Source of the DNA: an uncultured Candidatus Saccharibacteria bacterium
GTDB lineage: Bacteria > Patescibacteriota > Minisyncoccia > Phycocordibacterales > Phycocordibacteraceae
NCBI GenBank assembly: GCA_964349555.1
Contig: CAYGGK010000002.1
Span: forward strand, 9,258-73,257
Length of the DNA: 64,000 nucleotides
Direction of reading: 5' to 3'
The notes under the pieces are model-generated. The model saw only the letters and a program-made list of their open reading frames with translations, was not told the origin of the DNA and searched no databases. Made by a program: the position numbers and the translations under genes. This document shows, one piece after another, positions 4,422 through 58,492 of this stretch (positions within the stretch are counted from its first letter, which is position 1; each line of letters starts with the position of its first letter).

Positions 4422-4756
4422 AGACGTGTGGGAGTGTAGAGGGAAGAAATCGCTCGGACGGATTCGCGAGCTAGATACACGAAAGACACGAAAGAAAGAA
4501 CCGCAAGCACCTGCACCACAAGGCGCGTATGGCCGAATGCGGCTATAAAGAAGTTCGGTAGGTGTGCGAGATTAGTCGGAGCATTTTGAAATACGCGCGC
4601 GACCCACACCTCCTTTCCTATGCCCCACAGAGCAAGGACCAGGGTTAACACTGCGAGCATCCCTGTTGAAATAACGAGTCCGAACAACCGAGCGAGATGA
4701 ATGCGGCGCATGACGGCGCGCTCGATGTGAGATTGGTCATTCATGGTGCTGTTCAT
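4418..4756 (-). CDS. small membrane protein downstream of ECF sigma factor (possible anti-sigma factor)
   Basis: ORF immediately downstream of and co-oriented with the sigma-70/ECF gene; one or two predicted TM helices; assignment by position only. Confidence 0.3.
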
Positions 4757-4768
4757 AGTTCGACATAC

Positions 4769-5355
4769 TCACGACAAGTCATTCTGCTTATCATAGGCTT
4801 GTTTAAAAAGTTTCTTTGCGCGATGGACGCGCGTCTTTACGGCCGGGACTGAGAGCTTCTCTGCCTCCGCGATCTCTTCTTGACTCTTCCCTTCAATGAA
4901 CTGTAACCGTAGTATCTTCGCCGCGGTTTCAGGTAATTTCGCGAGTGCGGCGAGCACCTCATTCCGTATGGAGAGGTCTTCAATAAACTCTGCCCGCGCG
5001 TCCGGCAGTGACTCGTAGTGCTCCGGCTCAAGCTCTGCTCGCTGTCCACTCTCCTTACGTCGAGTAACATACGCAGTGTACGCGACACGATTCAGAATCG
5101 TGTACGCCCACGAAGAAAAACTTGCACCTTCCTGTACGTGAAATTTGTCCGCGTAGAGATACATTTTAGTGAATGCGTCCTGAACTGCCTCCTCGGCGTC
5201 CTCCGGAGAAAATAAAATCTTTCTCGCCCTGCGAAGCAGGGCCGCTTCATAGCGGCGAACAAGCAGGGCGAAGAGCTCGGGCTCCACACGGGAGCGTGCG
5301 AGCACCTCGGCGTCGGAGAGCGCTTCAGGGTCGTCCGCGGTTGAAAAACTCATTG
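4769..5355 (-). CDS. RNA polymerase sigma-70 family ECF sigma factor
   Basis: Region 2 (AEEAVQDAFTKMYLYADKF...) and region 4 HTH (SQEEIAEAEKLSVPAVKTRVHRAKKLFKQ); ORF track extends to 5458, but the extension is encoded by tandem hairpins, so start at MSFSTADD (5355) preferred. Confidence 0.75.
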
Positions 5356-5409
5356 TATCTGCTAGCATACAGATATTCTCGAAAATGTGTAGGTTTGTGG
5401 GGCACTTTT

Positions 5410-5450
5410 CCCCGACGCTTCGGTCGGGGTCCCGACTTCCTACGTCGGGA
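5410..5450. repeat. tandem pair of related GC-rich hairpins (CCCCGAC-GCTTCG-GTCGGGG / TCCCGAC-TTCCTAC-GTCGGGA) in the divergent sigma-factor/efp intergenic region
   Basis: Seen directly in sequence; REP-doublet-like arrangement. Confidence 0.5.
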
Positions 5451-5556
5451 TATAACATTTATATGGCTGGACTAAGTTACTACCAAGTGAGAGAGCAACA
5501 AGCCTCTGTCTGCAGATGCTTGTTCGAACGAACGCAGGGAGAAAGACAAAACTAGT

Positions 5557-9612: not shown

Positions 9613-10677
9613 TTAGAACTCGGGGGTGGGTACGGCGCGACGCTTCCTCTTATCAAAGTCAGAAACGAATTCCAGTGCGACCGCCGCGACCGGCACCGAG
9701 AGCAGTACGCCGAGGAATCCCGCGAGCGTGTATCCGGCGATAAGCGCCACAATGACCAGGAGCGGCGGAATGCCGATGATCTTCTTCACGATGAGAGGAT
9801 AAATGAGGTTTGATTCAAATTGGTTCACGACAATATAGAGGCCGGCGACGATGGCCGCAATCGCAACACCACCGTAAGAATAGGCGATAGCGACCGCCAC
9901 TACGCCCGACAGGAGAGAACCGAAGATAGGGATGATTTCAATCACCGCGGTGAAGACCGCGAGAAGAAGCGCGTGGGGGACGCCGATAATGAGCAGGCCG
10001 AGATAGACAAGCACGCCGACAATGACCGATAGAAGTATCTGTCCCTGCATCCAGAGTCCTATCTTTTTCTGCGACCGCTTCCAGAGATCAACGGAATATT
10101 CTTCATATTTTATCGGCATGACCATGCGCAGAAAGTCATCAACGCCGGTTTCTTGAAGTGCGAAGTAGAAAGAGAGCACGATGACGAGCGCGAGCGAAAA
10201 AACGCCGCCGAAGAAGGTAGAGAGCAGTTGTAGCACGCCGCCAGAGGCCGCGGTGAATGCCGACTGGAACGAAAGAAGCGTCTCTATGAATGATCCCGGT
10301 TGGCCGATGCTTACACCAGGATTGCTTGCGGAGGTGATGCTTGAGAACGAGCCGGTGAGATTAAACATCTCAAGATACTGCGGCATAACGGAGAGGAAGT
10401 TTGCCGCATCAGCTACAATTGGTGGAAAGAAAAAATAAATGACCGAAAAAACAGAACCGAACACCAGCGCATATACTAGAAGCGCGGCGGCGAAGCGCGG
10501 GATGCGATACCGGATGAAAAACGCGATTCCCGGCTCTATCGCCGAGGCGATAACGATGGCGGTGAGCACCAAGAGCGCGAGGTCGCGCAAGAGCCACAAA
10601 AGGTAAACTCCCGCGACAACACACAGCGCGGCAACGATGGTCCCGGACGTGATGGAAACCCGTATTTCCTTACCCAT
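9613..10677 (-). CDS. AI-2E family (UPF0118/PerM-like) transporter, multi-pass membrane protein
   Basis: Eight or so hydrophobic segments; typical length and pattern of the AI-2E/YhhT family. Confidence 0.6.
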   Translation of the reverse strand: MGKEIRVSITSGTIVAALCVVAGVYLLWLLRDLALLVLTAIVIASAIEPGIAFFIRYRIPRFAAALLVYALVFGSVFSVIYFFFPPIVADAANFLSVMPQYLEMFNLTGSFSSITSASNPGVSIGQPGSFIETLLSFQSAFTAASGGVLQLLSTFFGGVFSLALVIVLSFYFALQETGVDDFLRMVMPIKYEEYSVDLWKRSQKKIGLWMQGQILLSVIVGVLVYLGLLIIGVPHALLLAVFTAVIEIIPIFGSLLSGVVAVAIAYSYGGVAIAAIVAGLYIVVNQFESNLIYPLIVKKIIGIPPLLVIVALIAGYTLAGFLGVLLSVPVAAVALEFVSDFDKRKRRAVPTPEF

Positions 10678-29928: not shown

Positions 29929-30504
29929 ATGAAAAAACAAACCAAGTTAGTAGTGGGTGTTTCGGGAGCAAAAGGCAGCTTTTCTGAAGAAGCCGCCCTT
30001 AACTACGTTGCGAAGTCGCGTATAAAATCCTATTCAATACAGTACCTTGTCTCGGTAGAAAATGTTCTCCAGGCCCTTGAGCGAGGAGAGATAGCCGAGG
30101 GCATCTTCCCTATTGAGAACTCAAACGGCGGTGTCGTTATTGAGACCGTCTACGCCATGGCCAAACACACATTTCATATCAAGAAAATGTTTGAGATAGA
30201 CGTTCATCACAATTTGCTCGTGAAGAGGGGGGTTACGAGAGCCGAGATTAAAAAAATAGTTTCCCACGACCAGGCCCTCAAACAGTGTCGGATGTACCTC
30301 AAACGTGCGTGGCCGAAGGTGAAGGTGGCTGAATACAAAGACACAGCGCTCGCCGCCAAGGACCTTGCCAGCGGGAAACTGCCCGCCTCAACGGCCGTCA
30401 TCGCTTCAGGAGTAGCGGCAGATTTATATAAACTAAAAATTCTTGAGAAATCAATTCAGGATTTAAAGTTCAATTACACTAGTTTTATCGTCGCAAAAAA
30501 ATAA
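29929..30504 (+). CDS. prephenate dehydratase catalytic (PDT) domain protein, no ACT domain
   Basis: KLVVGVSGAKGSFSEEAALNY... PDT-domain N-terminus; about 190 aa. Confidence 0.65.
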   Translation: MKKQTKLVVGVSGAKGSFSEEAALNYVAKSRIKSYSIQYLVSVENVLQALERGEIAEGIFPIENSNGGVVIETVYAMAKHTFHIKKMFEIDVHHNLLVKRGVTRAEIKKIVSHDQALKQCRMYLKRAWPKVKVAEYKDTALAAKDLASGKLPASTAVIASGVAADLYKLKILEKSIQDLKFNYTSFIVAKK

Positions 30505-30506
30505 AA

Positions 30507-30752
30507 TTAGTCGGAGTAAAAATGTTTCCGCAATTCCGACTCTGGGATATACCGCGAGGCTTGCCGATAAAGCGATACGGCCGTGCCTCGGTCGAGTTCC
30601 TTATGGTTAGGCACGGTAAGCGTCTCACGCGTGCCGTCCTCGGCAGTTCGCCGTAGCTTGATATGGCTTCCTCTCTGGTCTGCTATAGAAAATCCGAAAC
30701 TCTCAAAAATATGAACAACATCTTGTCCGTTCAAGACCCGCGGCTTAGACAT
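30507..30752 (-). CDS. hicA: type II toxin HicA (mRNA interferase)
   Basis: MSKPRVLNGQDVVHIFESFGFSIADQRGSHIKLRR.. classic HicA; start at internal Met of ORF 30507..30812. Confidence 0.8.
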   Translation of the reverse strand: MSKPRVLNGQDVVHIFESFGFSIADQRGSHIKLRRTAEDGTRETLTVPNHKELDRGTAVSLYRQASRYIPESELRKHFYSD

Positions 30753-30975
30753 GCGCGAGCGCGCGAGGCAACTCAAAGTTGACGAGCACGGAGGACGAGG
30801 GTGCGAGGCCAAAATCCGCCGGATCCTCTCCGTTAAGGCAGAGTTCCGTGGCTTCCTGGATATTCTTCGCGAGTTCGTCGAGGGTCTTACCCTGGGTTAC
30901 TACCGGCAAATCCAAACCCTCAGCGACGTAGTAAGTGTCACCCTTGAAGATGCGGTATTGGATGATGGTCTTCAT
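30745..30975 (-). CDS. hicB: HicB-family antitoxin (UPF0150 fold)
   Basis: 76 aa; overlaps hicA start by 8 nt; YYVAEGLDLPVVTQGKTLDELAKNIQEA typical of the HicB N-domain. Confidence 0.65.
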   Translation of the reverse strand: MKTIIQYRIFKGDTYYVAEGLDLPVVTQGKTLDELAKNIQEATELCLNGEDPADFGLAPSSSVLVNFELPRALAHV

Positions 30976-31000
30976 ACTCGCTATTATACCATAGACGAAT

Positions 31001-32668
31001 TTAAGTAGGAAACTCTACAATAAAAGTCGAGCCCTTGCCCGCGCCCTCGGATTCGGCGCGGATGGTGCCACCATGCGCCTCCACAATCTGCTTCGCGATG
31101 TAGAGGCCGTAGCCGGTGGAGTGGACGTTCACCTTCTGCGACTCCTTACCGTGACCACCCTCGGTGAAGAGCAGTTTCTTATCTTCATCGGTTATGCCGA
31201 CGCCAGTATCTTTTACTTTGAAAACAAAAACATCCTTGTTGAGCGATTTATCCCGAGTCTTTTCGAGGGAAACCGCTACCGAGCCAGTCGGTGTGTAGTT
31301 AATAGAGTTGTCTATCAGGTTGCGTAGCACGTGGTCGCCGATTTGAGCTCTGTCTCCGGTCATCTCATACGACCCCTCATCGGTGGTAAAGGAGAGATTG
31401 AGCCCTTTCTGCTCGGCAGAGGACTTCGCCTTCTCTACCGCCTCTCCCACAAGAGCCTTGAGATCAAAGGTCGCTTTCGTGTAGGTCACGGTCCCCTTCT
31501 TCAAGTTCGCGGCCTTAAGGATATTCTCCACTGCACCAGCGCTCTGGCGTGACTCGGTGAGCGCATGCTCAACAAACGGCTTGAGCGTGTCGGGCAACAC
31601 TCCAAAGTCGCCCTCAGCGAGCGCGGCGAACGCTCCTGCATCCTTGGTCAACGACCCCTTCACCTCATGCCCGATGAAATGTATAAGCGTCTCCTGTCTC
31701 TCGTTGGTCTTCGCGAGCTCCCCCGCGAGTTCTTCAATATGCTCTCGCTGCTCAATCTCCCGTTTGACGCTTCGGACAAGGAACCAGCCGAAAATTATTG
31801 CAGAAAACAGTGTAATCCCAGTTAACACATAACTGACCGGATTTGTTACGAAGAGGAATTCCGCTGCCACTAGGATGACAAGGGAGACAACAAGTGCCTG
31901 GGTTGCAACGAGCTTTATATTAAACGCATGATATCGAGTCGTCGCATACGCAAGAATCCCAACAAAAATTGTCATGGCTGCCATGCCATATTGTGAAAGT
32001 CCGAAATCTGGTATATATCCCTGGTCAACAAGATAGCTCGCTACGACTCCTGTAACTAGAAAAGAGAAGGTAAAAAGTTCCGCGCCAGCAAAAATAACGA
32101 CTCGTGCAGATCGAATTTGGTAATCAGCGACATTCTTTTTGCGAAGCCCTTGGAACGCAGAAACCGCCATTAAGACCATGGCAAGTATGCCGAGACCGTA
32201 ATAATAGTTGGTAAACCAAGTCCCTTCGATTGCGATACAGTCTCTGATGTTATACCCGATGAGATTCGCAGTGGTAGGGGTGAAGATGAGTATGGGAAGA
32301 AATGCCACAGTCCAAACTGTAGCCATCCAAGCTGGCAATGGACGCTCAGTAATAGATACATGCACGAACCAATTTGTGAAAAAGAAAAGTAGCACCGAGA
32401 GCAGTCCGAGTTCTGCCCATGAAGACATGATGAATGTATTGTCTTCAATATAAATCCATTGCAATAAATCAAGCGTTGAATAGATTGAGAAAATAACAGC
32501 AATAACGGCAAGTAAGACACTTGCAAGATCCCTGCGTTTTAACAATACATAGCCACCGAAAAGAAGGGACGCCACGATTGCTGGTATATGGGTGTAATAG
32601 AGCAATCCTTGAGAATCCAAAAAAAACTGGTAGCAGTATTGAAGATTGTTCAAGAGATTGTATTCCAT
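31001..32668 (-). CDS. sensor histidine kinase with a roughly 7-TM N-terminal sensor domain
   Basis: HisKA H-box IHFIGHEVKGSL, HATPase_c N/G boxes (NLIDNSINYT, DTGVGI, GYGLYIAKQIV); no response regulator seen in window. Confidence 0.8.
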   Translation of the reverse strand: MEYNLLNNLQYCYQFFLDSQGLLYYTHIPAIVASLLFGGYVLLKRRDLASVLLAVIAVIFSIYSTLDLLQWIYIEDNTFIMSSWAELGLLSVLLFFFTNWFVHVSITERPLPAWMATVWTVAFLPILIFTPTTANLIGYNIRDCIAIEGTWFTNYYYGLGILAMVLMAVSAFQGLRKKNVADYQIRSARVVIFAGAELFTFSFLVTGVVASYLVDQGYIPDFGLSQYGMAAMTIFVGILAYATTRYHAFNIKLVATQALVVSLVILVAAEFLFVTNPVSYVLTGITLFSAIIFGWFLVRSVKREIEQREHIEELAGELAKTNERQETLIHFIGHEVKGSLTKDAGAFAALAEGDFGVLPDTLKPFVEHALTESRQSAGAVENILKAANLKKGTVTYTKATFDLKALVGEAVEKAKSSAEQKGLNLSFTTDEGSYEMTGDRAQIGDHVLRNLIDNSINYTPTGSVAVSLEKTRDKSLNKDVFVFKVKDTGVGITDEDKKLLFTEGGHGKESQKVNVHSTGYGLYIAKQIVEAHGGTIRAESEGAGKGSTFIVEFPT

Positions 32669-32674
32669 GTGGCT

Positions 32675-33442
32675 CTAGACGAATTGCCGCACCTTTTCTG
32701 GATAATAACACCCGAGCGGGCCATCATCAGTTTCCATAGGTTCAATGGGGACAATAAGCGGTTGTAAACCAAAAACTTCTTTCAGTTTCCGGAATGCCGG
32801 AAGCACTTTGATATTAGTAAAAAATGATTCTCGTTTTTCTGTTGTAAAATTACCGAACAAAATTGCATCTGATATGAACAACCCCAGGTATCGAAGATAC
32901 GGTAATTCGGGCGCAAAAGAATATCCTTTGCGGAACCAATCAGAGAAGTCGTATATTTCAATATTCACGCCTGGCAAACATTCCGAGAAAAGGCGGTGGT
33001 GGAAATCAATAAAATTTTCACCTTTTATGGTCTTGATTTCATTCATCGGCTTTCCTTGATCTTTTTCAAAATCGATAATACGTATCGACTCAGTAATCTT
33101 CTTGTTCCCTAAGAAGTTCTCTCGAAAGAATGTCAGCTCGCCTAAGCAGTGTTTTACATAATTTAAGTGGACAAACTTATCCTTTCTAAATTCATAGAAA
33201 ATAGGTCTGATTGGTAGATTTTTAGAAACATCCAGAAAATAGTTAAGTTCAAGGTTTGGACTTACAAGCGTAGGGGACATTACCGCTCGTGGCTCTAACA
33301 TTAATTCAGGAGGGCATGGGTGCGAAGAGAAGTAAGCATCCACCCTCTTCCTCAATTCCCTATCACCTCGGCGACGCTTAAGTTCTTCCAGCGCTTTCGT
33401 CAATGGTGTATAAAGTTCTGCGATTTCAGAATAGGAGGACAT
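32675..33442 (-). CDS. hypothetical protein (low-GC island; operonic with kinase)
   Basis: ORF only; 6-nt gaps to neighbours; no family recognised. Confidence 0.3.
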   Translation of the reverse strand: MSSYSEIAELYTPLTKALEELKRRRGDRELRKRVDAYFSSHPCPPELMLEPRAVMSPTLVSPNLELNYFLDVSKNLPIRPIFYEFRKDKFVHLNYVKHCLGELTFFRENFLGNKKITESIRIIDFEKDQGKPMNEIKTIKGENFIDFHHRLFSECLPGVNIEIYDFSDWFRKGYSFAPELPYLRYLGLFISDAILFGNFTTEKRESFFTNIKVLPAFRKLKEVFGLQPLIVPIEPMETDDGPLGCYYPEKVRQFV

Positions 33443-33448
33443 GAGACG

Positions 33449-33787
33449 TTATTGATTTGTGGTTATGGGACCATAGCATGTATTTTCTTCGCCTGATTCA
33501 CAATATTGAACTGTACAGCTTGAATCATCCTCCACACAACTCAACTCCGGACACTGGCCTGCCCACCCGTCACAGATAGGTATTGTGTTAGCTCTCTTTG
33601 TAATCTCTGCGTAATATTGTGGCGCATTTTCTCCGTCTCCAATAAAACAGGAATGCTGGGTTGGATCGCATGATACGTTTGCAAAAACGAGATAATCACG
33701 AACAATATAGAATTTATAAAATGCCGCACTCGCCGACACTAGCGACACCAGGACGATAATCCAGATGAGAATCCGAGTCCCCTTCAT
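33449..33787 (-). CDS. small secreted Cys-rich protein (signal peptide plus about 10 Cys)
   Basis: MKGTRILIWIIVLVSLVSASA signal; C-rich mature region; start at internal Met of ORF 33449..33898. Confidence 0.4.
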   Translation of the reverse strand: MKGTRILIWIIVLVSLVSASAAFYKFYIVRDYLVFANVSCDPTQHSCFIGDGENAPQYYAEITKRANTIPICDGWAGQCPELSCVEDDSSCTVQYCESGEENTCYGPITTNQ

Positions 33788-33848
33788 GGTTATTATTTTA
33801 ACACAAAAAAAGAAAATCGGCGGCATGCGTTGTGCGCATTGCCGCCGA

Positions 33849-34382
33849 TCAAGTGAGACCGAACCAGTTGAAGATGAAGCGGAGGCCCTCGACGGCAAGG
33901 GTTACAACACCTGTCCACCAGAGGTTGGCCACCAGAACACTGCCCCAGAAGATTCTCCAGTCCCGAGACGAGAGGCCGTTGTACGCTTCCGCGCCATGCC
34001 GCATGTACACGGTCGTCACGAACGGATCCGTGAAGCAGGACAAGGCGAGGAATGCGAGCCAGTCACCCTTGCGGGTGGCCCATTGGATAAGGCGCGCCAC
34101 GCGCCCTTGCTTCTCTTCCCCATCTCGCACTCCCTTGAGGAGTTCGAGACCGAGCCAGTCTTGCTTAGACCAGTCGTAGAAGAGGAGGTAGAGCCAGCAG
34201 ATGAGAGCTGAGAATACGGTCATGACGAGACCGCCGGAAATTGCCCCCAACCACGCTATGACCGCAGGGTAGAAGGTGTAGTCAAACACAAACTCCTCCG
34301 CCTGCTTGAAGCCATGGCCGACAGCCATGATACCGATTCGCTCTTTCCAGCGAATCGGTTGATTCGCTGATTTGAGCGCCAT
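33849..34382 (-). CDS. polytopic membrane protein (about 4 TM), function unknown
   Basis: ORF with hydrophobic segments; first gene of the putative four-gene minus-strand operon. Confidence 0.35.
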   Translation of the reverse strand: MALKSANQPIRWKERIGIMAVGHGFKQAEEFVFDYTFYPAVIAWLGAISGGLVMTVFSALICWLYLLFYDWSKQDWLGLELLKGVRDGEEKQGRVARLIQWATRKGDWLAFLALSCFTDPFVTTVYMRHGAEAYNGLSSRDWRIFWGSVLVANLWWTGVVTLAVEGLRFIFNWFGLT

Positions 34383-34600
34383 TTGGCATCTCCCTTGTTT
34401 GTTACGTTAATGTTCAGGCATTCGACTCCCGACGCACTGTCGTGCTGTCGAGTACAAATACCGCTACTTATATTAAAGCACGACTATCTAAAATGTACAA
34501 GTGTTTGACAATTTATAGATTTAGTAATACGATTTACTCGTGAGTCGTAATTGTGCTACTCGCCTTGGCCTACGCGCCATGAATGTAGAAAGAGAAAACA

Positions 34601-34987
34601 ATGCTTGCTCAAGTTCTTATAAACGAAGACGGGATAAACGCTCGCGCGATCTCCCAGCAGGTTTCTCTCCCTGAGTTCGACACCCACGTTCTTAAGCGGG
34701 TGTTAAGGGAAGAATCAAACTTGCATGACCCTCGCCCCCTAACCGACGCACAGATCGACGCCGACGTTGATGCCTACCTGGAATTCCTTCGCGAACGAAA
34801 GCTGAACCACGGTGTCAACATCGTGCCCGTGGTCCAGGTCGATCGGGTCTGGCACATTCACATCATTCAGACCGAGCAGTACGCCCAGGTCTGCAACGAC
34901 TACTTCGGCTACTTCCTTCATCATGCATCTTTCATCTGCGGCATGGGCGACGGTAAGAAGATGGTCCCCTGGCATACTCGTCAGTAG
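34601..34987 (+). CDS. hypothetical protein (possible DUF1399/GRDP-like WHxH motif)
   Basis: VDRVWHIHIIQTEQYAQVCNDYFG resembles the conserved core of DUF1399; weak. Confidence 0.3.
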   Translation: MLAQVLINEDGINARAISQQVSLPEFDTHVLKRVLREESNLHDPRPLTDAQIDADVDAYLEFLRERKLNHGVNIVPVVQVDRVWHIHIIQTEQYAQVCNDYFGYFLHHASFICGMGDGKKMVPWHTRQ

Positions 34988-35118
34988 TACCACCATTTGA
35001 GCCGAACCCAGTCCTCAAGCCTGCTTTCCTCTATCTCTAAGGGAAAGCAGGCTTTTGAATTGTCGTGCGAGACAAGGCTGAGTTGCGGAACAGGCAAGAT
35101 GCTCGTACAATTTTCTCA

Positions 35119-36762
35119 ATGGAAAAAATGCCTTCTAAGGAGAACGGCGGAAAAGAATTGCTACTGCCAGTTAATAGTCACACAGAGCTTTTCAGGGAAT
35201 TTCCCCCAGTGCCACAAAACCTTACTACTCTAGACACTCCTTTTTTGAGTCCTTACAAAAGTGCAAAAGAAAAGTTGGATTACGAGCGCCGTTTGCCCAT
35301 AGAAATCTTGCCATTTGTGCGCACTTATTTTGCGCAGCATAAGGATGAGATGTTGAAATTGTGTGAGAACGAACCTATTTCAGAGTATCTTTCGCATATC
35401 AAGGAAGCATGGCAAAAACACATAGGGGCTAACGAGGCGATTGACTGTTTTTTGAACTACGAGACTAAGAATGTTTTTGGAGACTGGTCTCAGAAGGAAT
35501 GGGGAATGGCAAAGAGGCTTATAGTTGCGGCTTTCGAGACTGATCATCAGAAAACAATGTATTCGGGGGGAATTAAACATAAATTAGAGATAGAACGCAT
35601 AAGGCTTGGAGAAAAATACCGGACCAGCGGAATTCAGGATTTTGACACACTACTTATTTCACCCGCTGGCCTCACCTTTTACGAAGGCCGTGAACACAAT
35701 AATAAGAAGTTACATCTATCCATACTCAAGGGAGAACCTGATTTTGAATTGAAGAACGAAATAGTAAATCGCTATAATGGGGGTGACCAAAAATTGTTCG
35801 AGGAACGATTCAAGACTTTCAAGTTCTCATCGGATATTGAGAAGTTGGAGTCAGAGATACAGGTAATTGAAGAAAGGGTTCGTTCTCGGTCAGTGAAGAA
35901 GAATTATGCGTTAGTGGAGAGGCAGGAGCTAAAAGATTTTGATTCTCTGCTTTTCTTCGACAACACAACGGAGTACGAATATACATACTCACTTAAAGGA
36001 CTGCAAGATTTGTTTCTTCGCGAAGAACTTCTCAAGCGATTAAAGAGTTTTGGGCAGTTCCCTGCAGATACGTCGGTATATTCCTTATCAAAAGAAGATT
36101 TTGTATCAGCCATAGACGATAGATTATCTAGCATAGCTAGACACTCTTCGATTCGTCTGCGTCCATACCTTCAAACAATGGATACGTGCGGAACAGCGTG
36201 TATTATGTCCATCCTTAATCGAAAAGGCATACCGCTTACCAGAGATGAGGAAATGGCAATTTGGGAACGCGTAGGAAAGCCTTATAATTTTCCTGGTGGA
36301 CTTGCGACCGTTCTCCTCGAGCATGGTTTCCATGTTAAATACATCCAAAATCACCTGACACTTCTTCAAGCTGACAGCCTGGAATTTGAGTCAAAAGATC
36401 CAAACCTCTTAAGGGCCGCTCGGGAATATGTGGTTCTTCATGAAAAGGCAATCAAAAAGGGTTTGAATTATTCTATAGAAAGTTGGGACTTTGAAAAAGT
36501 GAAGGTCGAGATAAGTAGGGGCAACCCCTGCATTCTGTATATATATGTTTCTGAGACATATACCCATTGTGTCATTGCTCGAGGTATCAAGAACAACAGG
36601 CTAGAGATAATCGACCCTCTTGGAAATATTAAGTATATGAATGAGGAGCAATTGAACAAAAGAATCGATACCCCGATGGGACGAAGAATGTTAGTTGTCG
36701 AGAAACTACCAGATGACTTTTTTGAGAAATTGGATAAAGACCTTCAGGTTATTGGTTATTAA
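35119..36762 (+). CDS. large hypothetical protein with C-terminal papain-like C39_2-type cysteine peptidase domain
   Basis: DTCGTACIMSILNRKGIP (catalytic Cys) ... YTHCVIARG (His) in the C-terminal 180 aa; N-terminal about 370 aa unknown; low GC. Confidence 0.45.
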   Translation: MEKMPSKENGGKELLLPVNSHTELFREFPPVPQNLTTLDTPFLSPYKSAKEKLDYERRLPIEILPFVRTYFAQHKDEMLKLCENEPISEYLSHIKEAWQKHIGANEAIDCFLNYETKNVFGDWSQKEWGMAKRLIVAAFETDHQKTMYSGGIKHKLEIERIRLGEKYRTSGIQDFDTLLISPAGLTFYEGREHNNKKLHLSILKGEPDFELKNEIVNRYNGGDQKLFEERFKTFKFSSDIEKLESEIQVIEERVRSRSVKKNYALVERQELKDFDSLLFFDNTTEYEYTYSLKGLQDLFLREELLKRLKSFGQFPADTSVYSLSKEDFVSAIDDRLSSIARHSSIRLRPYLQTMDTCGTACIMSILNRKGIPLTRDEEMAIWERVGKPYNFPGGLATVLLEHGFHVKYIQNHLTLLQADSLEFESKDPNLLRAAREYVVLHEKAIKKGLNYSIESWDFEKVKVEISRGNPCILYIYVSETYTHCVIARGIKNNRLEIIDPLGNIKYMNEEQLNKRIDTPMGRRMLVVEKLPDDFFEKLDKDLQVIGY

Positions 36763-36775
36763 ATAATCGTACACA

Positions 36776-37462
36776 TCATTCAATCTCCTTGAGCGCTTCC
36801 ATTGTTACGTGGACTAACTCGATCACCTCCTCATCCTTTTTCGGAGAATGCCCCATCCCTTCTATTAAATGAAGCTTAGAATTCGAAAGCATGGTGTTGA
36901 GCGTTTCTGAATTTTCAATTGATACAGCATCATCACTCGTCCCATGCACTATATGAACGGGAATATCGATTTCTCGCAAGAAATTCTTTCCAAGGGTAAT
37001 TGATAGAAGTGGGTCAATATCAGAAAATGGCTTGGACTTCATCTCATTAAAGTTTCCTTCATCAGTTTCCGAAAATCCAATCGCAGGAGCCCACAATATC
37101 AATATATTAATACGTTTATCGTTTGCGGCAAGTAGCATCCCGCCGCCAAAACTTTTACCAATGCCGTATATGTCAGTATACCCCATCTCCAAAAGGGAGG
37201 ACACTGATTCATGTATTCTTTCAACTATTTTAGCGATACACATTTCTCCTAGATCAGTACTAGCGTTCCACACCTTAAGGCACTCAGAGTGAATACCTCC
37301 TTTATTTAACTGATCTTTTAGCATTTCATAGAGTGGTAACTGCTTTTCTGCATTTATGCCTGGAACGAAAAGAACTGCGCGGGTTTTTTTCTGCTTTGGT
37401 TTGGAGCTGGAAATAAATTTTGTATCTTCTAGTTTCATATTTCTAATTTTATCACTTTTCAA
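36776..37462 (-). CDS. alpha/beta hydrolase (dienelactone hydrolase-like)
   Basis: GxSxG nucleophile elbow GIGKSFGG, C-terminal His GMGHSP. Confidence 0.6.
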   Translation of the reverse strand: MKSDKIRNMKLEDTKFISSSKPKQKKTRAVLFVPGINAEKQLPLYEMLKDQLNKGGIHSECLKVWNASTDLGEMCIAKIVERIHESVSSLLEMGYTDIYGIGKSFGGGMLLAANDKRINILILWAPAIGFSETDEGNFNEMKSKPFSDIDPLLSITLGKNFLREIDIPVHIVHGTSDDAVSIENSETLNTMLSNSKLHLIEGMGHSPKKDEEVIELVHVTMEALKEIE

Positions 37463-37500: not shown

Positions 37501-38218
37501 AATGGGGTCAGCCACCATTCTTTGGTCTACCAACTCTCCGTAGAGTTTGTTCCAACCCATGCTTCTTCACGATAGCATCCTGCCAGCGATCGGAACCGAA
37601 CGGGATACTCTTCGCTATCGAACGTTCGAGAGCCTTTTCTTCTGTTTGTACCTGCGGCTGATTCAGCCATGAGATGTAGTCATGTGGTACTGGAACTGGC
37701 CAAGAAGTGAGGAGTTTCTTTTGCTGTGGTGTTCCATGTTCCCGGCGCCACACACTCGACCAGCGCCATTGCTCTGCCTTTTTAACTAGGTTCGCTTTCT
37801 TCGCGTTTCGCTCGACATAGCGGACAAGGGTAAGGAAGTGTTTGTCTGTCTGACAGAGAAAGGATTTGTATCTGCCTTGGTAGAGGTGGCCCTGGCCAAC
37901 AGTATCTTTTGCAACGTGCCAACGTCTCGTATGTGTATTGGTGATCCAACCCATGAATAGGGAGAGGTCACCATCATTCCTGGGATAGAGGACTAGATGC
38001 CAGTGATTAGGCATGAGGCAGTACGCAAGGATGCGCATAGCAAATTTCTTTTCCGCTTCTTCAAGAATTTGCTCGAAGAGCGGGTAGTCTTTATCGGTAT
38101 CAAATATTTGGACGCGGGCATTTGCGCGGTTCAGGACGTGGTATACATGATCACCAACATCAGTGCGCTCAATGCGGGGCATGCATACAGAATATCATAA
38201 ATGGTGGCTGACCCCATT
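37501..38218. mobile_element. 718-bp IS200-like/REP-associated tyrosine transposase (RAYT) unit bounded by perfect 19-bp inverted REP-like repeats AATGGGGTCAGCCACCATT
   Basis: Left IR 37501..37519, right IR 38200..38218 (exact reverse complement); each IR is itself hairpin-forming (AATGG..CCATT). Confidence 0.75.
37508..38182 (-). CDS. REP-associated tyrosine transposase (Y1 transposase, PF01797-like)
   Basis: YHVLNRANARVQIF.., HxH motif CLMPNHWHLVL, catalytic-Tyr region LYQGRYKSF / YVERNAKKANLV...WRWSS. Confidence 0.75.
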   Translation of the reverse strand: MPRIERTDVGDHVYHVLNRANARVQIFDTDKDYPLFEQILEEAEKKFAMRILAYCLMPNHWHLVLYPRNDGDLSLFMGWITNTHTRRWHVAKDTVGQGHLYQGRYKSFLCQTDKHFLTLVRYVERNAKKANLVKKAEQWRWSSVWRREHGTPQQKKLLTSWPVPVPHDYISWLNQPQVQTEEKALERSIAKSIPFGSDRWQDAIVKKHGLEQTLRRVGRPKNGG

Positions 38219-42257: not shown

Positions 42258-42295
42258 CTGTTAACTTTTGGTGCGCGGTGAGGGACTTGAACCCC
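42258..42295 (-). other. tRNA 3' fragment (T-arm + acceptor 3' strand + CCA: GGGGGTTCAAGTCCCTCACCGCGCACCA); no matching 5' half
   Basis: Revcomp reads as a canonical T-loop/acceptor/CCA, but no D-arm or anticodon arm can be folded upstream; overlaps the 3' end of ORF 42261..42950. Confidence 0.45.
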
Positions 42296-42950
42296 CGAGT
42301 TCAGCTAATTTTTCAATCCACCCTTTTATAGTGAGAAAGATGATGGTGTCACACACGTATATTTGAAACGTACCGTACGGCAACGAATCTTTTTTTCCTT
42401 TACTCGCAGTGCTTGGCTTCGAATAGGTCTTATAAAACTGCCGGCGAGGTATCCCTGAAATTTGAGACCAATACTGTTCTGCTTTTTCTGCGTTCAAATG
42501 CGAAAAAGTATGCACATGTCCGCGGAATTTATTCGACGGGACATTAAACACTTCACGAAAGAACAACATCATGAATCGGATGACTTTGGGATCACTGTTT
42601 GAAATTCTAGCCATTCCGGTTTTTGTTTTTCCTCCCTCGCCCCAATACAAAGCAGATCCTACTAGGAGCAAATCCTGTTTAGATAGTGTCGGGATTTTTT
42701 CTTTTGCTGCGTCGATTACTATCCGATGCCGCTGAAGCGTTCCTTTTATCCTGCTTTTTCTCCTTCTCTCTATAGACTCAACACTGCGACCGTGTGTGCT
42801 TAGTTTTTTCCTCTGCTGTTCCGATAACTCTATATCACGAACCCATAAACTAACACTTGCTTTAGAAACACCTAACTCACGTACTATCTCATTGAGCGAC
42901 ATACCTTTCCCCCGAAGGAGCCTGGCTCGTTCTTGTTCTTCTTTTTTCAT
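42261..42950 (-). CDS. HTH-domain protein of unknown function (low GC; weak LAGLIDADG-like motif)
   Basis: N-terminal HTH GMSLNEIVRELGVSKASVSLWVRD; LLLVGSALYWGEGGK faintly resembles a LAGLIDADG block; sits between a tRNA 3' fragment and a tRNA cluster. Confidence 0.35.
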   Translation of the reverse strand: MKKEEQERARLLRGKGMSLNEIVRELGVSKASVSLWVRDIELSEQQRKKLSTHGRSVESIERRRKSRIKGTLQRHRIVIDAAKEKIPTLSKQDLLLVGSALYWGEGGKTKTGMARISNSDPKVIRFMMLFFREVFNVPSNKFRGHVHTFSHLNAEKAEQYWSQISGIPRRQFYKTYSKPSTASKGKKDSLPYGTFQIYVCDTIIFLTIKGWIEKLAELGGSSPSPRTKS

Positions 42951-43473: not shown

Positions 43474-46101
43474 ATGAGGCTTTCAATCATCATTCCGTGC
43501 TACAACGAGAGTCGGACGTTGGAGGAACTATTAGATAAAGTTATTGTGGCACCACTTCCGCAAGGGTGGAACAAAGAGATTATCGTCGTTGATGACGGAT
43601 CTAATCAAGAAACAAAAAATACACTTTCACGTTTGCAGCCTGGACTCTTCTCTTTAGTTCACAGAAAACACAACGGAGGGAAGGGAGCCGCTCTTAAGGA
43701 TGGTTTTGCTAAAGCGTCTGGAGACTACCTTTTAATACAAGACGCAGATCTTGAGTACGATCCGGCGGATTATCTTGCACTCCTTTCGCCCATTGACCAA
43801 AAGAAGGCCCAAATAGTATTTGGATCTCGACGCACGAAGAGAGAAAACGCATCCGGGAATATTCTCTATGCTTGGGGAGGAGTACTCGTCACCAAGATAT
43901 TTAATGTACTATTCAAAACCAACCTCACTGACATAGCGACGTGCTACAAGGTTTTCCCCAAGTATCTCGTACCAGAGCTTTTGAAATGCAAAAATCAAAG
44001 TTTCATTTTTGATATGGTCGATTTGACCCATGTTCTTGCGACCCATGAAAAGATCATAGAAGTACCGATTTCATATAGAGCACGAACGAAACAAAACGGA
44101 AAAAAACTCAAATGGACAGATGGAATACGGGCGGTGACAAGAATGTTCGCCCTCAAATTTTCCTCTGGTGAGAATCTTTTGAAACTTGCCGTTTTTGGAC
44201 TTCTTCTGCTTTTTTATGGCTCACTGTTGATTCATCAGATTGATTTCTCCGCGGGAGATGATCTTCCGCGCCACATTAAAAACGGCGAGATGATACTCAA
44301 TGGCAATTTTGAAATCCTGTACCAAAATACGTACTCATATACAGAATCCAATGAGACCTTTGTTAATCATCATTGGTTGTCTGGCGTTGTTTTTTACCTG
44401 CTTAATGTCGCTTTTGGTTGGAATGGATTCATTATCTTCAAGGCGATTCTTTTGCTCACTTCCTTTTCCCTGCTGTTCTTCACCGCATTGCGGAAATCCT
44501 CCTTTTGGCTTGCCGCGATACTTTCTGTCCCGGCAATTCTTATACTCGCGGAACGTACAACCCTGCGCCCCGAGATATTCAGCTATTTCTTTATCGCAAC
44601 TTTTCTTTACATCTTAACAGTTGGCGAAAAAAATCAGAATACAAGAAAAATATACCTACTTATTCCGCTCCAACTACTCTGGGTTAATCTCCACATCTTT
44701 TTTCCCATCGGCATCGTACTCGTCGGCGCTTTTTTCTTAGAAAAAGTGGTTGAATACAGAAAATCCTTGACGGGAAACTCTTATATCCGCAGGTTAATTA
44801 CTGTGCTGTGTGCCGTCGTTTTTGTCTCATTCCTCAACCCTAACGGCATTGCCGGAGTACTTGAACCAGTCCGCATTTCCAATGACATTGGCATTGAGGT
44901 AAGCGAGACACAGTCAATACTCACGGTCATGAGGACAGAGCCGCTTAAAGATGTCATACCCATTTTCACCTTCGTTGCGATGCTGCCGTTTCTAGTCCTT
45001 AGTTTCGTTCTTGCTGGAAAAAAGAGGCCGATACCATTTTATGCCGTCGCAGCATTATTCACAGTAGCCGCAGGACTGTTAATGAGACGAAATATACCCC
45101 TTACCGGCTTGATTTTTCTTCCTGCGGTAGCGGCAAACATGCACGCATACTTCGCAGCTCAACGTATACAAAAGTCGAAGCTAAGCCCATACGTTGCTGC
45201 GTGGATAATTGGCACTTTGCTGGTGATTCTAATCTCGCTAGGTTTGAACGGGGGAATTACCGTATATAACAGACCAGGACTGGGGCTGACACCCCGCTCT
45301 CAAGACGCAGCTCTCTTTCTGAAAGAACATTCACTGCGAGGGCCTATATTCAACAACTTTGATAGTGGTAGTTATCTGATTTACCACTTGTTTCCAAAAG
45401 AAAAGGTATTCGTAGACAACAGACCTGAAGCTTATTCCAGATCCTTTTTTGAGCATGAGTATCTTGAGCCCATGCAAAATGAAACCGCGTGGGAACAACT
45501 ACTCACAAAATATAATTTTAACATGGTGTTCCTTTCCACGTATGACCAAAGTTGGTATTTCCACCAGTTTGCTTTTAACCGAATCCGCGATCCGGCATGG
45601 GCACTCGTATATGCCGATACGTATCATCTCATTTTTTTGAGGCGCGTCTCCAACAATGAAGAGATCATTCGGCGTTTTGAGATTTCACCCGTAAATGCAG
45701 AAGAAAAATTACGCCCCTTAGCGAACTCGTTGTATTTTGAAGACAAAGTTGCAGCAGCGGATATTTTCAACCTTTTGGGAATGGAAAGTCTCGCAGCCGA
45801 AACCCACTTACGTATCGTGACGCAATGGCCTGATAAGGCAAAAATATGGATGGTAATGGGCATCTGGGAGCTTATCGGCACTAGAGCAGACATGGATCCG
45901 AGAAGGGGCGTCGAGTATCTCAAAAAAGCTATTGATTTTGGGCAAAAGACTGCGGGGGCATACTATTTCCTCAGCTTCGGTTATTACAAGATCGGCGACT
46001 TTGAGAAAGCGAAAGTAGCAATCAAGCACTCTTTGGATATTAACCCCTCCTATCAAGCCTCCCTTGACCTCCAAAAGCTACTGCTCAATAAATCAAACTA
46101 A
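43474..46101 (+). CDS. fusion protein: N-terminal family-2 glycosyltransferase (DPM1-like), central about 11-TM domain, C-terminal TPR repeats
   Basis: SIIIPCYNE.., VVDDGSNQET, LIQDADLEYDP (DxD), then long polytopic region, then TPR-like C-terminus (..AYYFLSFGYYKIGDFEKAKVAIKHSLDINP). Confidence 0.7.
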   Translation: MRLSIIIPCYNESRTLEELLDKVIVAPLPQGWNKEIIVVDDGSNQETKNTLSRLQPGLFSLVHRKHNGGKGAALKDGFAKASGDYLLIQDADLEYDPADYLALLSPIDQKKAQIVFGSRRTKRENASGNILYAWGGVLVTKIFNVLFKTNLTDIATCYKVFPKYLVPELLKCKNQSFIFDMVDLTHVLATHEKIIEVPISYRARTKQNGKKLKWTDGIRAVTRMFALKFSSGENLLKLAVFGLLLLFYGSLLIHQIDFSAGDDLPRHIKNGEMILNGNFEILYQNTYSYTESNETFVNHHWLSGVVFYLLNVAFGWNGFIIFKAILLLTSFSLLFFTALRKSSFWLAAILSVPAILILAERTTLRPEIFSYFFIATFLYILTVGEKNQNTRKIYLLIPLQLLWVNLHIFFPIGIVLVGAFFLEKVVEYRKSLTGNSYIRRLITVLCAVVFVSFLNPNGIAGVLEPVRISNDIGIEVSETQSILTVMRTEPLKDVIPIFTFVAMLPFLVLSFVLAGKKRPIPFYAVAALFTVAAGLLMRRNIPLTGLIFLPAVAANMHAYFAAQRIQKSKLSPYVAAWIIGTLLVILISLGLNGGITVYNRPGLGLTPRSQDAALFLKEHSLRGPIFNNFDSGSYLIYHLFPKEKVFVDNRPEAYSRSFFEHEYLEPMQNETAWEQLLTKYNFNMVFLSTYDQSWYFHQFAFNRIRDPAWALVYADTYHLIFLRRVSNNEEIIRRFEISPVNAEEKLRPLANSLYFEDKVAAADIFNLLGMESLAAETHLRIVTQWPDKAKIWMVMGIWELIGTRADMDPRRGVEYLKKAIDFGQKTAGAYYFLSFGYYKIGDFEKAKVAIKHSLDINPSYQASLDLQKLLLNKSN

Positions 46102-57137: not shown

Positions 57138-57920
57138 TTAAGTTGCTAAACGCACGCCCGCTCCCCGCTCATCTCTCTCGTGTTCTTCATGTAGCTGAAT
57201 TGCGATCTTCGTAAAGAAGAGGGTAAGAAGCGCAAAAATAGCAGCCTGTATAAACCCGACAAACACCTCAAACGCCACAAACGGCACGGGAAGAACGTAG
57301 GGTACAAAAGACAGTACCACAAGAATCAATACTTTTCCTGCAAAAATATTCCCAAACAGACGGAATGAGAAAGAAATAAGACGGGCGATTTCTGACATCA
57401 GTTCAATAAGGCCGACGGCAAAAGCCATTGGAGACTTGAACGAAATAAATTTTGAGCCGTAAGTAAAAGCGCCAAGTACCACAATACCTGCGATTTCTAT
57501 AGTAAAAAAAGCGATGAAAGAAAGTGCGAGCGTTAGGTTCAGGTCAGTTGCTCCCGGATAAAAAAAAGGAATGAGCTCGTCTCCATGCATGACCCCTATA
57601 GAAGCTACAAACGGAAGGAGCCCAAACCAATTTATACAGAGTACAAAAAGGAATAGTGTCATGATAATAGGAAACACTTTGTCCGCAACAGAATCATTCT
57701 CTAAAGTATCGCGTACTAGATTATATGGATACATAATCAAAAGTTCTACTACCGTTTGGAACCTGCGCGGTTTCAATGTAAGCGAGCGTCCAACCACATA
57801 CGCAAATACGATAAGAAGAAGTGCCACCACGACCGCGGTAAGCAACGTATTCGTCACCGGGATACCGCCGATATGAAAAAGCGCCAGAGGCGCCAGGTGA
57901 ATTGCTATTTCTCCGTGCAT
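57138..57920 (-). CDS. atpB: Fo ATP synthase subunit a
   Basis: 5-6 TM; conserved Arg region ..ISFSFRLFGNIFAGKVLIL. Confidence 0.85.
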   Translation of the reverse strand: MHGEIAIHLAPLALFHIGGIPVTNTLLTAVVVALLLIVFAYVVGRSLTLKPRRFQTVVELLIMYPYNLVRDTLENDSVADKVFPIIMTLFLFVLCINWFGLLPFVASIGVMHGDELIPFFYPGATDLNLTLALSFIAFFTIEIAGIVVLGAFTYGSKFISFKSPMAFAVGLIELMSEIARLISFSFRLFGNIFAGKVLILVVLSFVPYVLPVPFVAFEVFVGFIQAAIFALLTLFFTKIAIQLHEEHERDERGAGVRLAT

Positions 57921-57976: not shown

Positions 57977-58492
57977 TTAGCGGTAGACGGCGATACTTTG
58001 CCGTATGACCACTTGGTCGCGTGACTTGAGGTACTCGCCGAGATAATCAAACCAGACTTTGAGAAAATCCTCTCGTTTTAATTTTCGCATGCCACCGATT
58101 TCGGGGTCCTGGAGATAGATATACTTCTTATCCAGTCCGACTGCTATGGAGTAGTGTCCGTCGGCAGTAAACCAGTCAGGGTCGTCGCTCCTGCCCTTGG
58201 TGAACCAATCAACGACAACCGGTATGTCTTTTTTAAGATACTTTTCTATGTCCTTAAACGTAGAGTAGTTTTTAACTTTGGCTTTTAGACCGAAGTGTTT
58301 GAGGCCTTTAACAAAATCCTCGACCGTCGTGCCAGTTTTCTCGGTGGTCCCCAGGAGGCGTGCCAGCTCTTTCTCTGATTTTTCAATACCGTAGTATTGC
58401 AGGAGCATTTTAAGTGTTGCCGGAGCGCAATAACTTTTATAGAGCGTTTCCTGAAAAGGTTTGACGGCAAGCAGTGCGCTCTTTTTACTCAC
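57977..58492 (-). CDS. C39_2-like papain-fold cysteine peptidase (paralogue of the C-terminal domain of 35119..36762)
   Basis: YCAPATLKMLLQYYG (Cys) ... DGHYSIAVG (His). Confidence 0.5.
   Translation of the reverse strand: MSKKSALLAVKPFQETLYKSYCAPATLKMLLQYYGIEKSEKELARLLGTTEKTGTTVEDFVKGLKHFGLKAKVKNYSTFKDIEKYLKKDIPVVVDWFTKGRSDDPDWFTADGHYSIAVGLDKKYIYLQDPEIGGMRKLKREDFLKVWFDYLGEYLKSRDQVVIRQSIAVYR

Follow-up and report, generated by a model that had tools for sequence, protein, structure and literature searches.

A conserved and functionally linked signalling module, apparently undescribed, was identified in the window, that is, the whole stretch of 64,000 nucleotides analysed here (contig CAYGGK010000002.1, assembly GCA_964349555.1). 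The module comprises a cysteine-rich exported protein (Cys-rich), a cytoplasmic protein of 255 residues (HUP255) and a histidine kinase with many transmembrane (TM) helices, and is accompanied by a small membrane protein of 177 residues (Memb177). Its novelty is that of a sensor kinase that has specificity partners and draws on three protein families without annotation. The core of the finding is that Cys-rich, HUP255 and the sensor half of the kinase share one history, uncoupled from that of the kinase core and of Memb177. No description of the module was found in the literature on histidine kinases, SET proteins and cysteine-rich proteins of the Candidate Phyla Radiation (CPR), Patescibacteria and Parcubacteria; papers on heliorhodopsin and on the Lipocone proved unrelated to it.

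The features of the locus are given below in window coordinates, all four genes lying on the minus strand. W designates the window locus and L with a number the loci of relatives; GC3 is the GC content of third codon positions.

33849 to 34382, minus strand: Memb177, a helical membrane protein of 177 residues (GC 0.58, GC3 0.73); conserved left flank, outside the variable block.
33804 to 33848, minus strand: terminator-like element, directly 3' of the Memb177 stop codon.
33795 to 33803, minus strand: extended -10-like promoter element TGTTAAAAT, ending 7 nt ahead of the Cys-rich ATG.
33449 to 33787, minus strand: Cys-rich, an exported protein of 112 residues with a hydrophobic N-terminus and an extracytoplasmic domain of about 88 residues.
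32675 to 33442, minus strand: HUP255, a cytoplasmic protein of 255 residues from an unannotated family, with a modelled Rossmann-like fold of the HUP class.
31001 to 32668, minus strand: the whole histidine kinase gene (555 residues), with a HATPase_c match.
31790 to 32668, minus strand: sensor half of the kinase (residues 1-293), with about 9 TM helices; the AT-rich right-hand part of the variable cassette.
31001 to 31789, minus strand: kinase core (residues 294-555), with coiled linker, DHp and HATPase_c (GC3 0.67); conserved right flank.

The first-pass annotation of this DNA had placed four minus-strand genes here, and reading of the open reading frames (ORFs) recovered all four at those positions. 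On sequence grounds the four are real genes, because their proteins are conserved across 14 independent loci at 19-75% identity. Cys-rich counts 112 residues from its ATG, its frame being open further to a TTG at 33898. The spacers of 6 nt described for the whole group hold between the kinase and HUP255 and between HUP255 and Cys-rich only, Memb177 and Cys-rich being separated by 61 nt. Similarly, the AT-richness ascribed to the three upstream genes relative to the kinase is true of Cys-rich and HUP255 and not of Memb177, which is GC-rich (0.58), and the 5' half of the kinase gene is itself AT-rich. Paralogues of the module genes were absent elsewhere in the window. Memb177, Cys-rich and HUP255 gave no match in Pfam (searched also with the family alignments), NCBIfam or PADLOC, in line with the earlier statement that the components belong to no known family; only noise was returned for the three families (such as DUF846, VTT_dom and DsbB, at E>=0.02), and profile searches of the PDB with them found nothing. 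Among the PADLOC anti-phage models the kinase had only a generic match over its HATPase region (PDC-M43B, 9.6e-07) and the other six proteins had none.

The HUP255 homologues retrieved by word-indexed search form 35 clusters, and in their contigs a HATPase_c kinase of about 550 residues is encoded directly downstream and a gene of about 115 residues adjoins. The Memb177 homologues (78 clusters) provided a second, independent entry point to the same module. Scans of genomes and metagenomes with narrow patterns returned 6 and 7 loci, respectively. L010 and L011 show Memb177, a gap without called genes, one or two genes of about 270-300 residues and a kinase of about 537 residues; by six-frame translation the gap encodes Cys-rich, and the genes of 272, 274 and 301 residues are divergent HUP255 members. 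When profile hidden Markov models (HMMs) from our own alignments were run on the stop-to-stop ORFs of all fetched loci, Cys-rich, HUP255 and the kinase were identified in the same orientation in 14 of the 14 independent loci analysed in full, and in fragments consistent with them. The co-occurrence of HUP255 and Cys-rich in other genomes is thus strongly positive. The order Cys-rich, HUP255, kinase is kept in most loci; exceptions are L008 (HUP255 before Cys-rich) and L027, where Cys-rich lies about 2.6 kb upstream, before an ABC transporter. The three-gene linkage is retained even by the most remote HUP255 members examined (L025, L026 and L027, with 31-38% identity). Memb177 is close by in 11 of the 14 loci, inverted in L006, three genes away in L008 and duplicated in L016 and L017. 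Tandem duplicates within the module are two HUP255 genes in L011 (8035-8781 and 8857-9600) and the two Memb177 genes of L016 and of L017. Synteny of the flanks is not conserved among genomes. The nearest relatives with a name are hypothetical proteins from Candidatus Kaiserbacteria, Paceibacterota, Nomurabacteria and the 'Patescibacteria group', and no relatives were present in the viral contigs, phage records and plasmid records searched.

A gene for a SET-domain methyltransferase adjoins the kinase in four loci. It stands between HUP255 and the kinase in L004 (8771-9352), L008 (9256-9828, there after Cys-rich) and L012 (about 9743-10150), and on the opposite strand in L027 (4552-4965); none was identified in the window. 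In three of these four loci (L004, L008 and L027) the H-box of the kinase reads H-Q instead of H-E, and L004 and L008 have a distinct kinase core.

The shared history was read from pairwise protein identities in five segments (Memb177, Cys-rich, HUP255, sensor half and kinase core) over the 14 independent loci. Cys-rich is correlated with HUP255 (Spearman rho 0.77) and with the sensor half (0.83), as is HUP255 with the sensor half (0.86), the Mantel p being about 5e-4 in the three cases. Within one and the same kinase, the sensor half and the core show no correlation (rho 0.02, not significant). Memb177 shows no significant correlation with Cys-rich (rho -0.02), HUP255 (0.03) or the sensor half (-0.07), and with the kinase core rho is 0.34 (Mantel p 0.07). 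Single pairs of loci depart in both directions: L004 and L006 share 73% identity in the sensor half, 71% in HUP255 and 60% in Cys-rich, with 39% in the core and 28% in Memb177; L006 and L010 share 71% in the core, with 23% in the sensor half, 31% in HUP255 and 27% in Cys-rich.

Along the window locus the GC3 profile is 0.74 / 0.40 / 0.67, with maximum-likelihood change points at 33728, close to codon 20 of Cys-rich, and at 31790, residue 293 of the kinase and the end of its last TM helix (2*deltaLL = 101). Comparison of W with L010 by blastn aligns only 34393-33800 (Memb177 and the hairpin behind it, 75%) and 31720-31014 (the core, 68%), and comparison with L006 aligns only 33724-32633 (Cys-rich and HUP255) and 31773-31008 (the core). 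The GC3 change points and the breaks in blastn homology coincide, and the block of about 1.9 kb between them (31790-33728) is compositionally foreign in the window. GC3 is lower in Cys-rich, HUP255 and the sensor half than in Memb177 and the core in 7 of 11 loci (W, L004, L006, L008, L010, L012 and L017) and not in L011, L014, L015 and L016. The likeness to peptide-pheromone cassettes proposed at first thereby received unexpected support, since the mosaic is like that of comQXP and agr, in which partners and sensor half co-vary and the kinase core is conserved.

The kinase was correctly recognised as such in the first reading: it matches HATPase_c (PF02518, 1.7e-22), and residues 326-554 match the full DHp and CA domains of SrrB (2e-20) and of HK853 by phmmer against the PDB, the alignment with the complete DHp and CA domains of SrrB, HK853 and WalK-type structures extending over residues 320-554. 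The H-box FIGH(334)EVKG, the residues N450/N454 and the motifs DTGxGI and GYGL...HGG are invariant in 6 homologues. The Pfam HisKA model itself gave no match to the window kinase; from the conserved motifs and the alignment, the core is a canonical DHp and CA pair of the HisKA type. Hydropathy and the positive-inside rule predict about 9 TM helices, with the N-terminus outside, in place of the seven or so first estimated. The outer loops are short (8-27 residues). Two cysteines, C12 in the N-terminal tail (which points outward) and C144 in the loop between TM4 and TM5, are predicted to face the outside and are invariant in 6 diverse homologues, the divergent type included. The sensor region matched no Pfam sensor family, HisKA_7TM (PF16927) being absent from the window kinase and five relatives even at E<=1; a weak precomputed match to it was found in the L025 homologue only. 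The idea of a rhodopsin in the TM domain had no support and was dropped.

Cys-rich contains 8 cysteines, all beyond the hydrophobic N-terminus and extracytoplasmic, and not about 10 as first counted (relatives have 8 or 10). The number is even in 24 of 24 sequences, with gains and losses occurring pairwise. In the alignment C40, C47, C72, C84 and C91 are invariant and C79, C96 and C104 nearly so. The even count is consistent with disulfide bonding of the domain. By hydropathy, the protein has a single N-terminal hydrophobic, TM-like segment (residues 6-24) followed by the domain of about 88 residues, and this N-terminus would be either a signal peptide or a signal anchor. The best conserved part is the juxtamembrane stretch FYKFYIxRDYLVFANVS (identity 0.78, against 0.49 in the hydrophobic helix). 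The family has no match in Pfam or the PDB. No evidence was obtained for a small peptide signal or bacteriocin, as had been suggested, the product being this domain with its even number of cysteines. The gene is present in every locus examined, and public gene callers omit it in L001-L003, L004, L010, L011 and L025, where their gene tables show a 'gap' of about 400 bp; because callers skip it in most loci, a database of 5.8 billion proteins has only 10 Cys-rich clusters. Uncalled copies lie at 4575-4910 in L001, 7605-7940 in L010, 7632-7946 in L011 and 711-1028 in L025, the window copy being at 33449-33787 on the minus strand.

HUP255 had been described as a protein of no recognisable family. 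Pfam and NCBIfam do leave it without a match, but its AlphaFold2 model (29 homologues) is confident (pLDDT 91.3, pTM 0.88) and is, at the level of the model, a Rossmann-like fold of the HUP type, like class I aminoacyl-tRNA synthetases (aaRS) and nucleotidyltransferases. Foldseek comparison of the model with the PDB gave no significant match. HUP-class enzymes (cores of class I Lys-, Tyr- and Trp-tRNA synthetases, BshC, nucleotidyltransferases and cyclodipeptide synthases [CDPS]) and the USP domain of KdpD are listed nearest to it. After strand 1 the HIGH, HxGH and SGGxDS signatures are absent; the loop after the strand at 52-55 is SPTLV[ST]PN-E, with no His or Gly, so that the usual position of HIGH or HxGH is occupied by [ST]-P-N-x-E, and FHHR sits at residues 147-150 instead. 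Family motifs are E84...D88-K-F, G141-E..F..F-H-H-R150, W169 and Y182. By these absent signature motifs HUP255 falls outside the class I aaRS and nucleotidyltransferases, and neither KMSKS, a CDPS signature nor any link at the sequence level to aaRS, BshC or CDPS enzymes was found. Over 65 diverse members R24, H148, Y182 and P228 are invariant, and E65, E84, N94, K97, T138, W169, E205 and Y247 are conserved in >=90%. Some ten polar residues are conserved throughout the family, which suggests an enzyme or a pocket for a specific ligand. A receiver-like, phospho-accepting role was considered and dropped, CheY-like folds giving no matches. An HMM scan of 1.84 billion representatives placed 898 members in the family at E<=1e-3, 441 of them at E<=1e-30. 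Of ten over-long members, four carry a C-terminal SET domain (P0129, P0138, P0148 and P0191) and two an N-terminal GNAT domain (P0139 and P0154).

Memb177 is modelled with confidence as all-helical (pLDDT 86); the model has no informative structural neighbour, and numerous conserved charged residues lie close to the membrane boundary. The protein had been taken for a membrane processing protein within the signalling cassette; it has no similarity to processing or immunity proteins and does not co-vary with the cassette. Directly after its stop codon stands a GC-rich, bulged hairpin of 13 bp followed by a T-run, with the stem TCGGCGGC(A)ATGCG / CGCATGCCGCCGA, then TTTTCTTTTTTT (33804-33848; direct reading, and a hairpin in RNAfold). 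Its sequence is conserved in L004, L010, L012, L019 and L023, with a compensatory change GGCGAC/GTCGCC in L023 and a G-U pair in L012. Rfam gave no family match anywhere in 30400-35100, the hairpin included. A consensus scan for promoters and terminators stayed at background level, and the simple terminator scan missed the hairpin because its stem is bulged. Elements resembling TGnTAnAAT lie 7-12 nt before the Cys-rich ATG in L004, L012, L019, L023 and L010. Read as an extended -10, TGTTAAAAT suggests by consensus resemblance a leaderless or near-leaderless cassette transcript. From the hairpin and the -10-like element upstream of Cys-rich, the cassette is therefore probably a transcription unit of its own behind a terminator, possibly leaderless, and Memb177 appears to be a separate unit.

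The reading that we favour, tentatively and by analogy, is a multi-part receptor formed by a tethered Cys-rich co-receptor, HUP255 and the 9-TM kinase, in which a specificity cassette is swapped by recombination. The Cys-rich domain, membrane-tethered and probably disulfide-bonded, would supply the extracytoplasmic recognition surface, because the kinase has only short outer loops. It may dock on the N-terminal tail and the TM4-5 loop of the kinase, the sites of the invariant C12 and C144, an arrangement that would resemble YycH/YycI-WalK and SaeP/SaeQ-SaeS. HUP255 would act at the inner face, alone or with the SET or GNAT proteins with which it is teamed or fused in relatives. Binding of the signal would switch autophosphorylation at H334, and the phosphate would pass to a response regulator encoded elsewhere. 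The three parts could be replaced together by recombination between the conserved flanks, Memb177 with the hairpin at one end and the kinase core at the other, and the replacement of Cys-rich, HUP255 and the sensor half would be joint because the parts must fit each other. With such an exchange the cell would sense something else; in an episymbiont this might be, for instance, a cue from the host surface or from the environment.

Several points weigh against the receptor so described. The accessory systems YycHI and SaePQ are not known to undergo exchange of the cassette type, which typifies self-signalling loci (comQXP, agr and blp, for example). The hydrophobic segment of Cys-rich is short (about 17-19 residues) and an AxA-like motif often follows it (such as SAA|F or ASA|Y; frequent and not universal), and because of both the protein may be cleaved and released instead of tethered. 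One GNAT-HUP255 fusion lies on a contig of 4.6 kb with a spermine-synthase-like gene upstream and no adjoining kinase, the only examined case of HUP255 not adjoining one. The Mantel tests rest on 10-14 loci found by homology, a small sample. The cassette is not perfectly indivisible, since the window sensor half is nearest to L021, L015 and L014 and its HUP255 and Cys-rich are nearest to L012, L004 and L006. As the HUP255 gene lies between Cys-rich and the kinase in most loci, its co-variation could come from hitch-hiking between the breakpoints and not from co-adaptation. Finally, tblastn with CheY, PhoB, NarL and Spo0F identified no response regulator in the window (best E 0.15) and Response_reg was absent from Pfam scans of about 40 of its roughly 70 ORFs, as already noted at first reading for the neighbourhood of the kinase. 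The same holds for receiver domains in relatives (L001-L011 by tblastn, other loci from precomputed Pfam tables); no locus emerged in which the kinase is paired with a response regulator and lacks the upstream genes, and the non-kinase proteins fell into no known family.

A self-produced signal is a serious rival to the co-receptor, because the form of the polymorphism is that of comQXP and agr, and we consider it possible, if on the whole unlikely. The locus would then be a pherotype system of the comQXPA or agr kind: Cys-rich would be cleaved by signal peptidase to release a signal of about 89 residues, HUP255 (in some lineages with SET or GNAT) would mature or modify it before export, the 9-TM kinase would be the cognate receptor, and exchange of the cassette would produce mutually incompatible 'dialects'. 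An enzyme-like gene, an exported protein and a sensor half co-vary here with the core uncoupled, as in the comQXP pattern; the order HUP255-Cys-rich-(SET)-kinase of L008 parallels comQ-comX-comP; in most homologues the mature domain, with its conserved aromatic start, is preceded by AxA-like motifs; and behind a terminator the cassette carries a promoter-like element of its own. The polar residues of HUP255 are enzyme-like as well, and its fold relatives are adenylating ligases or ligases that use aminoacyl-tRNA. However, known bacterial pheromones do not look like a domain of about 88 residues whose cysteines are even in number, it is not obvious how an enzyme of the cytoplasm would reach a domain exported by Sec, and the cassette has no dedicated exporter, processing protease or response regulator. 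No match to the ComQ, ComX, AgrB or AgrD families was found, and the comparisons run across distant lineages and not between strains of one species. It is rather unlikely, in our estimate, that CPR bacteria of the Paceibacteria type use a horizontally exchanged, pherotype-like recognition in which a secreted disulfide-rich protein is matured with the HUP-fold enzyme family, sometimes with SET or GNAT, and read by the 9-TM kinase; if true, ultra-small episymbionts would have strain- or host-specific 'dialects'.

An improbable alternative is that HUP255 synthesizes a small molecule, as an adenylate-forming or aminoacyl-tRNA-dependent ligase of the aaRS, BshC or CDPS kind with SET or GNAT tailoring, the product being exported and sensed by the TM domain of the kinase and Cys-rich serving as an extracellular factor that binds or presents it. 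The family-wide conservation of polar residues in HUP255 and its fusion to methyl- and acetyltransferase domains agree with such a synthase, as do an EamA-type exporter gene directly upstream of HUP255 in L026 and the ABC exporter inside the L027 module, but these exporter associations are single cases. HIGH, KMSKS and CDPS signatures and any sequence link to such enzymes are wanting, and SET domains normally methylate protein lysines and not small molecules.

We hold it to be quite improbable that the module surveys the thiol and redox state or the metals of the envelope, with the cysteines of Cys-rich and C12 and C144 of the kinase acting as a switch and the kinase reporting oxidative or metal stress at the surface. 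The partner does have 8-10 conserved extracytoplasmic cysteines and the kinase two invariant outward ones, and CPR organisms are typically groundwater anaerobes. However, structural disulfides are favoured over sensory thiols because cysteines are gained and lost strictly in pairs (an even count in all the Cys-rich sequences), a generic redox sensor gives no reason for diversification by cassettes, and no metal-binding motif or family match was found.

Neighbours without joint function, with the low-GC block as a horizontally acquired patch and the kinase working alone with a distant response regulator, are very improbable and this reading is strongly disfavoured: it would fit the foreign composition of the block, the second AT-rich island 3 kb off with its IS200-like transposase and the lack of shared flanking synteny between genomes, but the three genes stay together in all 14 loci despite unrelated flanks, their spacers are very short and they co-vary, and the SET-HUP255 fusions and the insertion of SET between HUP255 and the kinase tie the components to each other.

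The window reads as chromosomal DNA of a CPR bacterium, the neighbours being housekeeping genes (L11, NusG, thymidylate synthase, L19, UppS and others). The second AT-rich island (35065-37462, GC 0.39-0.41) is absent from the other module loci and comprises a 565-aa protein with a C-terminal C39-like peptidase domain (35065-36762, plus strand) and a 228-aa alpha/beta hydrolase (36776-37462, minus strand), adjoined by the IS200-like Y1 transposase (37508-38182, minus strand). Divergent from Memb177, and only in the locus of this genome, is a 128-aa protein (34601-34987, plus strand) assigned to PF27765 (UCP032817-like) in a public table and without a match in our own Pfam scan. The C39-like peptidase and the UCP032817-like neighbour were considered as parts of the module and dropped, being absent from all other loci. 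Directly downstream of the kinase (30507-30975, minus strand) are a HicA toxin (HicA_toxin, 2.1e-14) and an overlapping UPF0150/HicB-like ORF of 76 residues; L008 likewise has a HicA gene, at a distance of a few kb from the module. Farther away are a stand-alone cysteine peptidase of the C39/C39_2/C70 type (171 aa, 1.6e-16; 57977-58492, minus strand), adjoined by an AT-rich gene for a 260-aa membrane protein (57138-57920), and two low-GC genes (0.43-0.44). One of these (43474-46101, plus strand) encodes 875 residues with, by eye, a glycosyltransferase-like N-terminus, a large multi-TM region and a TPR-like tail, and the other (42261-42950, minus strand) a 229-aa protein with a resolvase-type helix-turn-helix. 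The only other regulator noticed in the window besides the kinase is a sigma factor of the extracytoplasmic function type (Sigma70_r2/r4, 229 aa), followed by a 112-aa ORF that is a candidate anti-sigma partner (4418-5458, minus strand).

CPR bacteria, or Patescibacteria, have tiny genomes and few known regulatory systems, and the way in which they sense their hosts and each other is poorly understood. The module is widespread in them, lineage-specific and testable, and the HUP255 (898 representatives) and Cys-rich families are absent from the curated libraries searched. The swapping of a kinase sensor half with two partner genes while the core is kept is a rare signature, otherwise the hallmark of loci for communication specificity. 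If confirmed, it would give a handle on how specificity is determined in uncultured symbionts, and a clear case of domain-level recombination within a kinase gene. It would also place a new HUP-fold family, with its links to SET and GNAT transferases, in a functional context.

Three groups of known systems were compared with the module. In the accessory systems YycH/YycI-WalK, SaeP/SaeQ-SaeS and LiaF-LiaS, partners encoded in the operon give regulatory input to kinases with little or no outer domain. The module resembles YycHI, SaePQ and LiaF in having an extracytoplasmic protein anchored by its N-terminus, together with a small polytopic membrane protein; its proteins have no relation to theirs in sequence or fold, and those systems have a response regulator in their operon, are not known to move as specificity cassettes and have no cytoplasmic HUP-fold partner. 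In staphylococcal agrBDCA the sensor half of a polytopic kinase lies within the hypervariable specificity region, and there too a small membrane protein gene stands upstream and a product is exported. In contrast, neither Memb177 nor Cys-rich has an AgrB or AgrD match, Memb177 does not co-vary and is followed by a terminator, and the product is a folded domain of about 88 residues and not a thiolactone peptide. The agr locus also joins an HPK10 kinase to a LytTR regulator, whereas the core here is of the HisKA type and no regulator, of the AgrA type or other, was found.

In ComQXPA of Bacillus subtilis, too, an enzyme of the cytoplasm and a small exported product are combined with a kinase that has many TM helices. 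Conservation in comQXP is poor in comQ, in comX and in the 5' part of comP, and the rest is conserved (PMC6334282). Enzyme, product and 5' sensor part are likewise variable and co-varying in the module, with a conserved kinase core, here between distant lineages only. However, ComQ is an isoprenyl transferase, whereas HUP255 is modelled as Rossmann-like and not as an all-helical prenyl synthase; ComX is a short peptide without a Sec signal, whereas Cys-rich is a Sec-type protein of 112 residues; and ComP is of the HisKA_3 type with ComA adjacent, whereas the kinase here is of the HisKA type with no regulator nearby. The module is neither a ComQXPA nor an agr system, as it has no prenyl transferase, AgrB, AgrD or adjacent regulator. 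Its organisational logic is shared with both the accessory-protein kinases and the pherotype loci, and its core with ordinary HisKA kinases.

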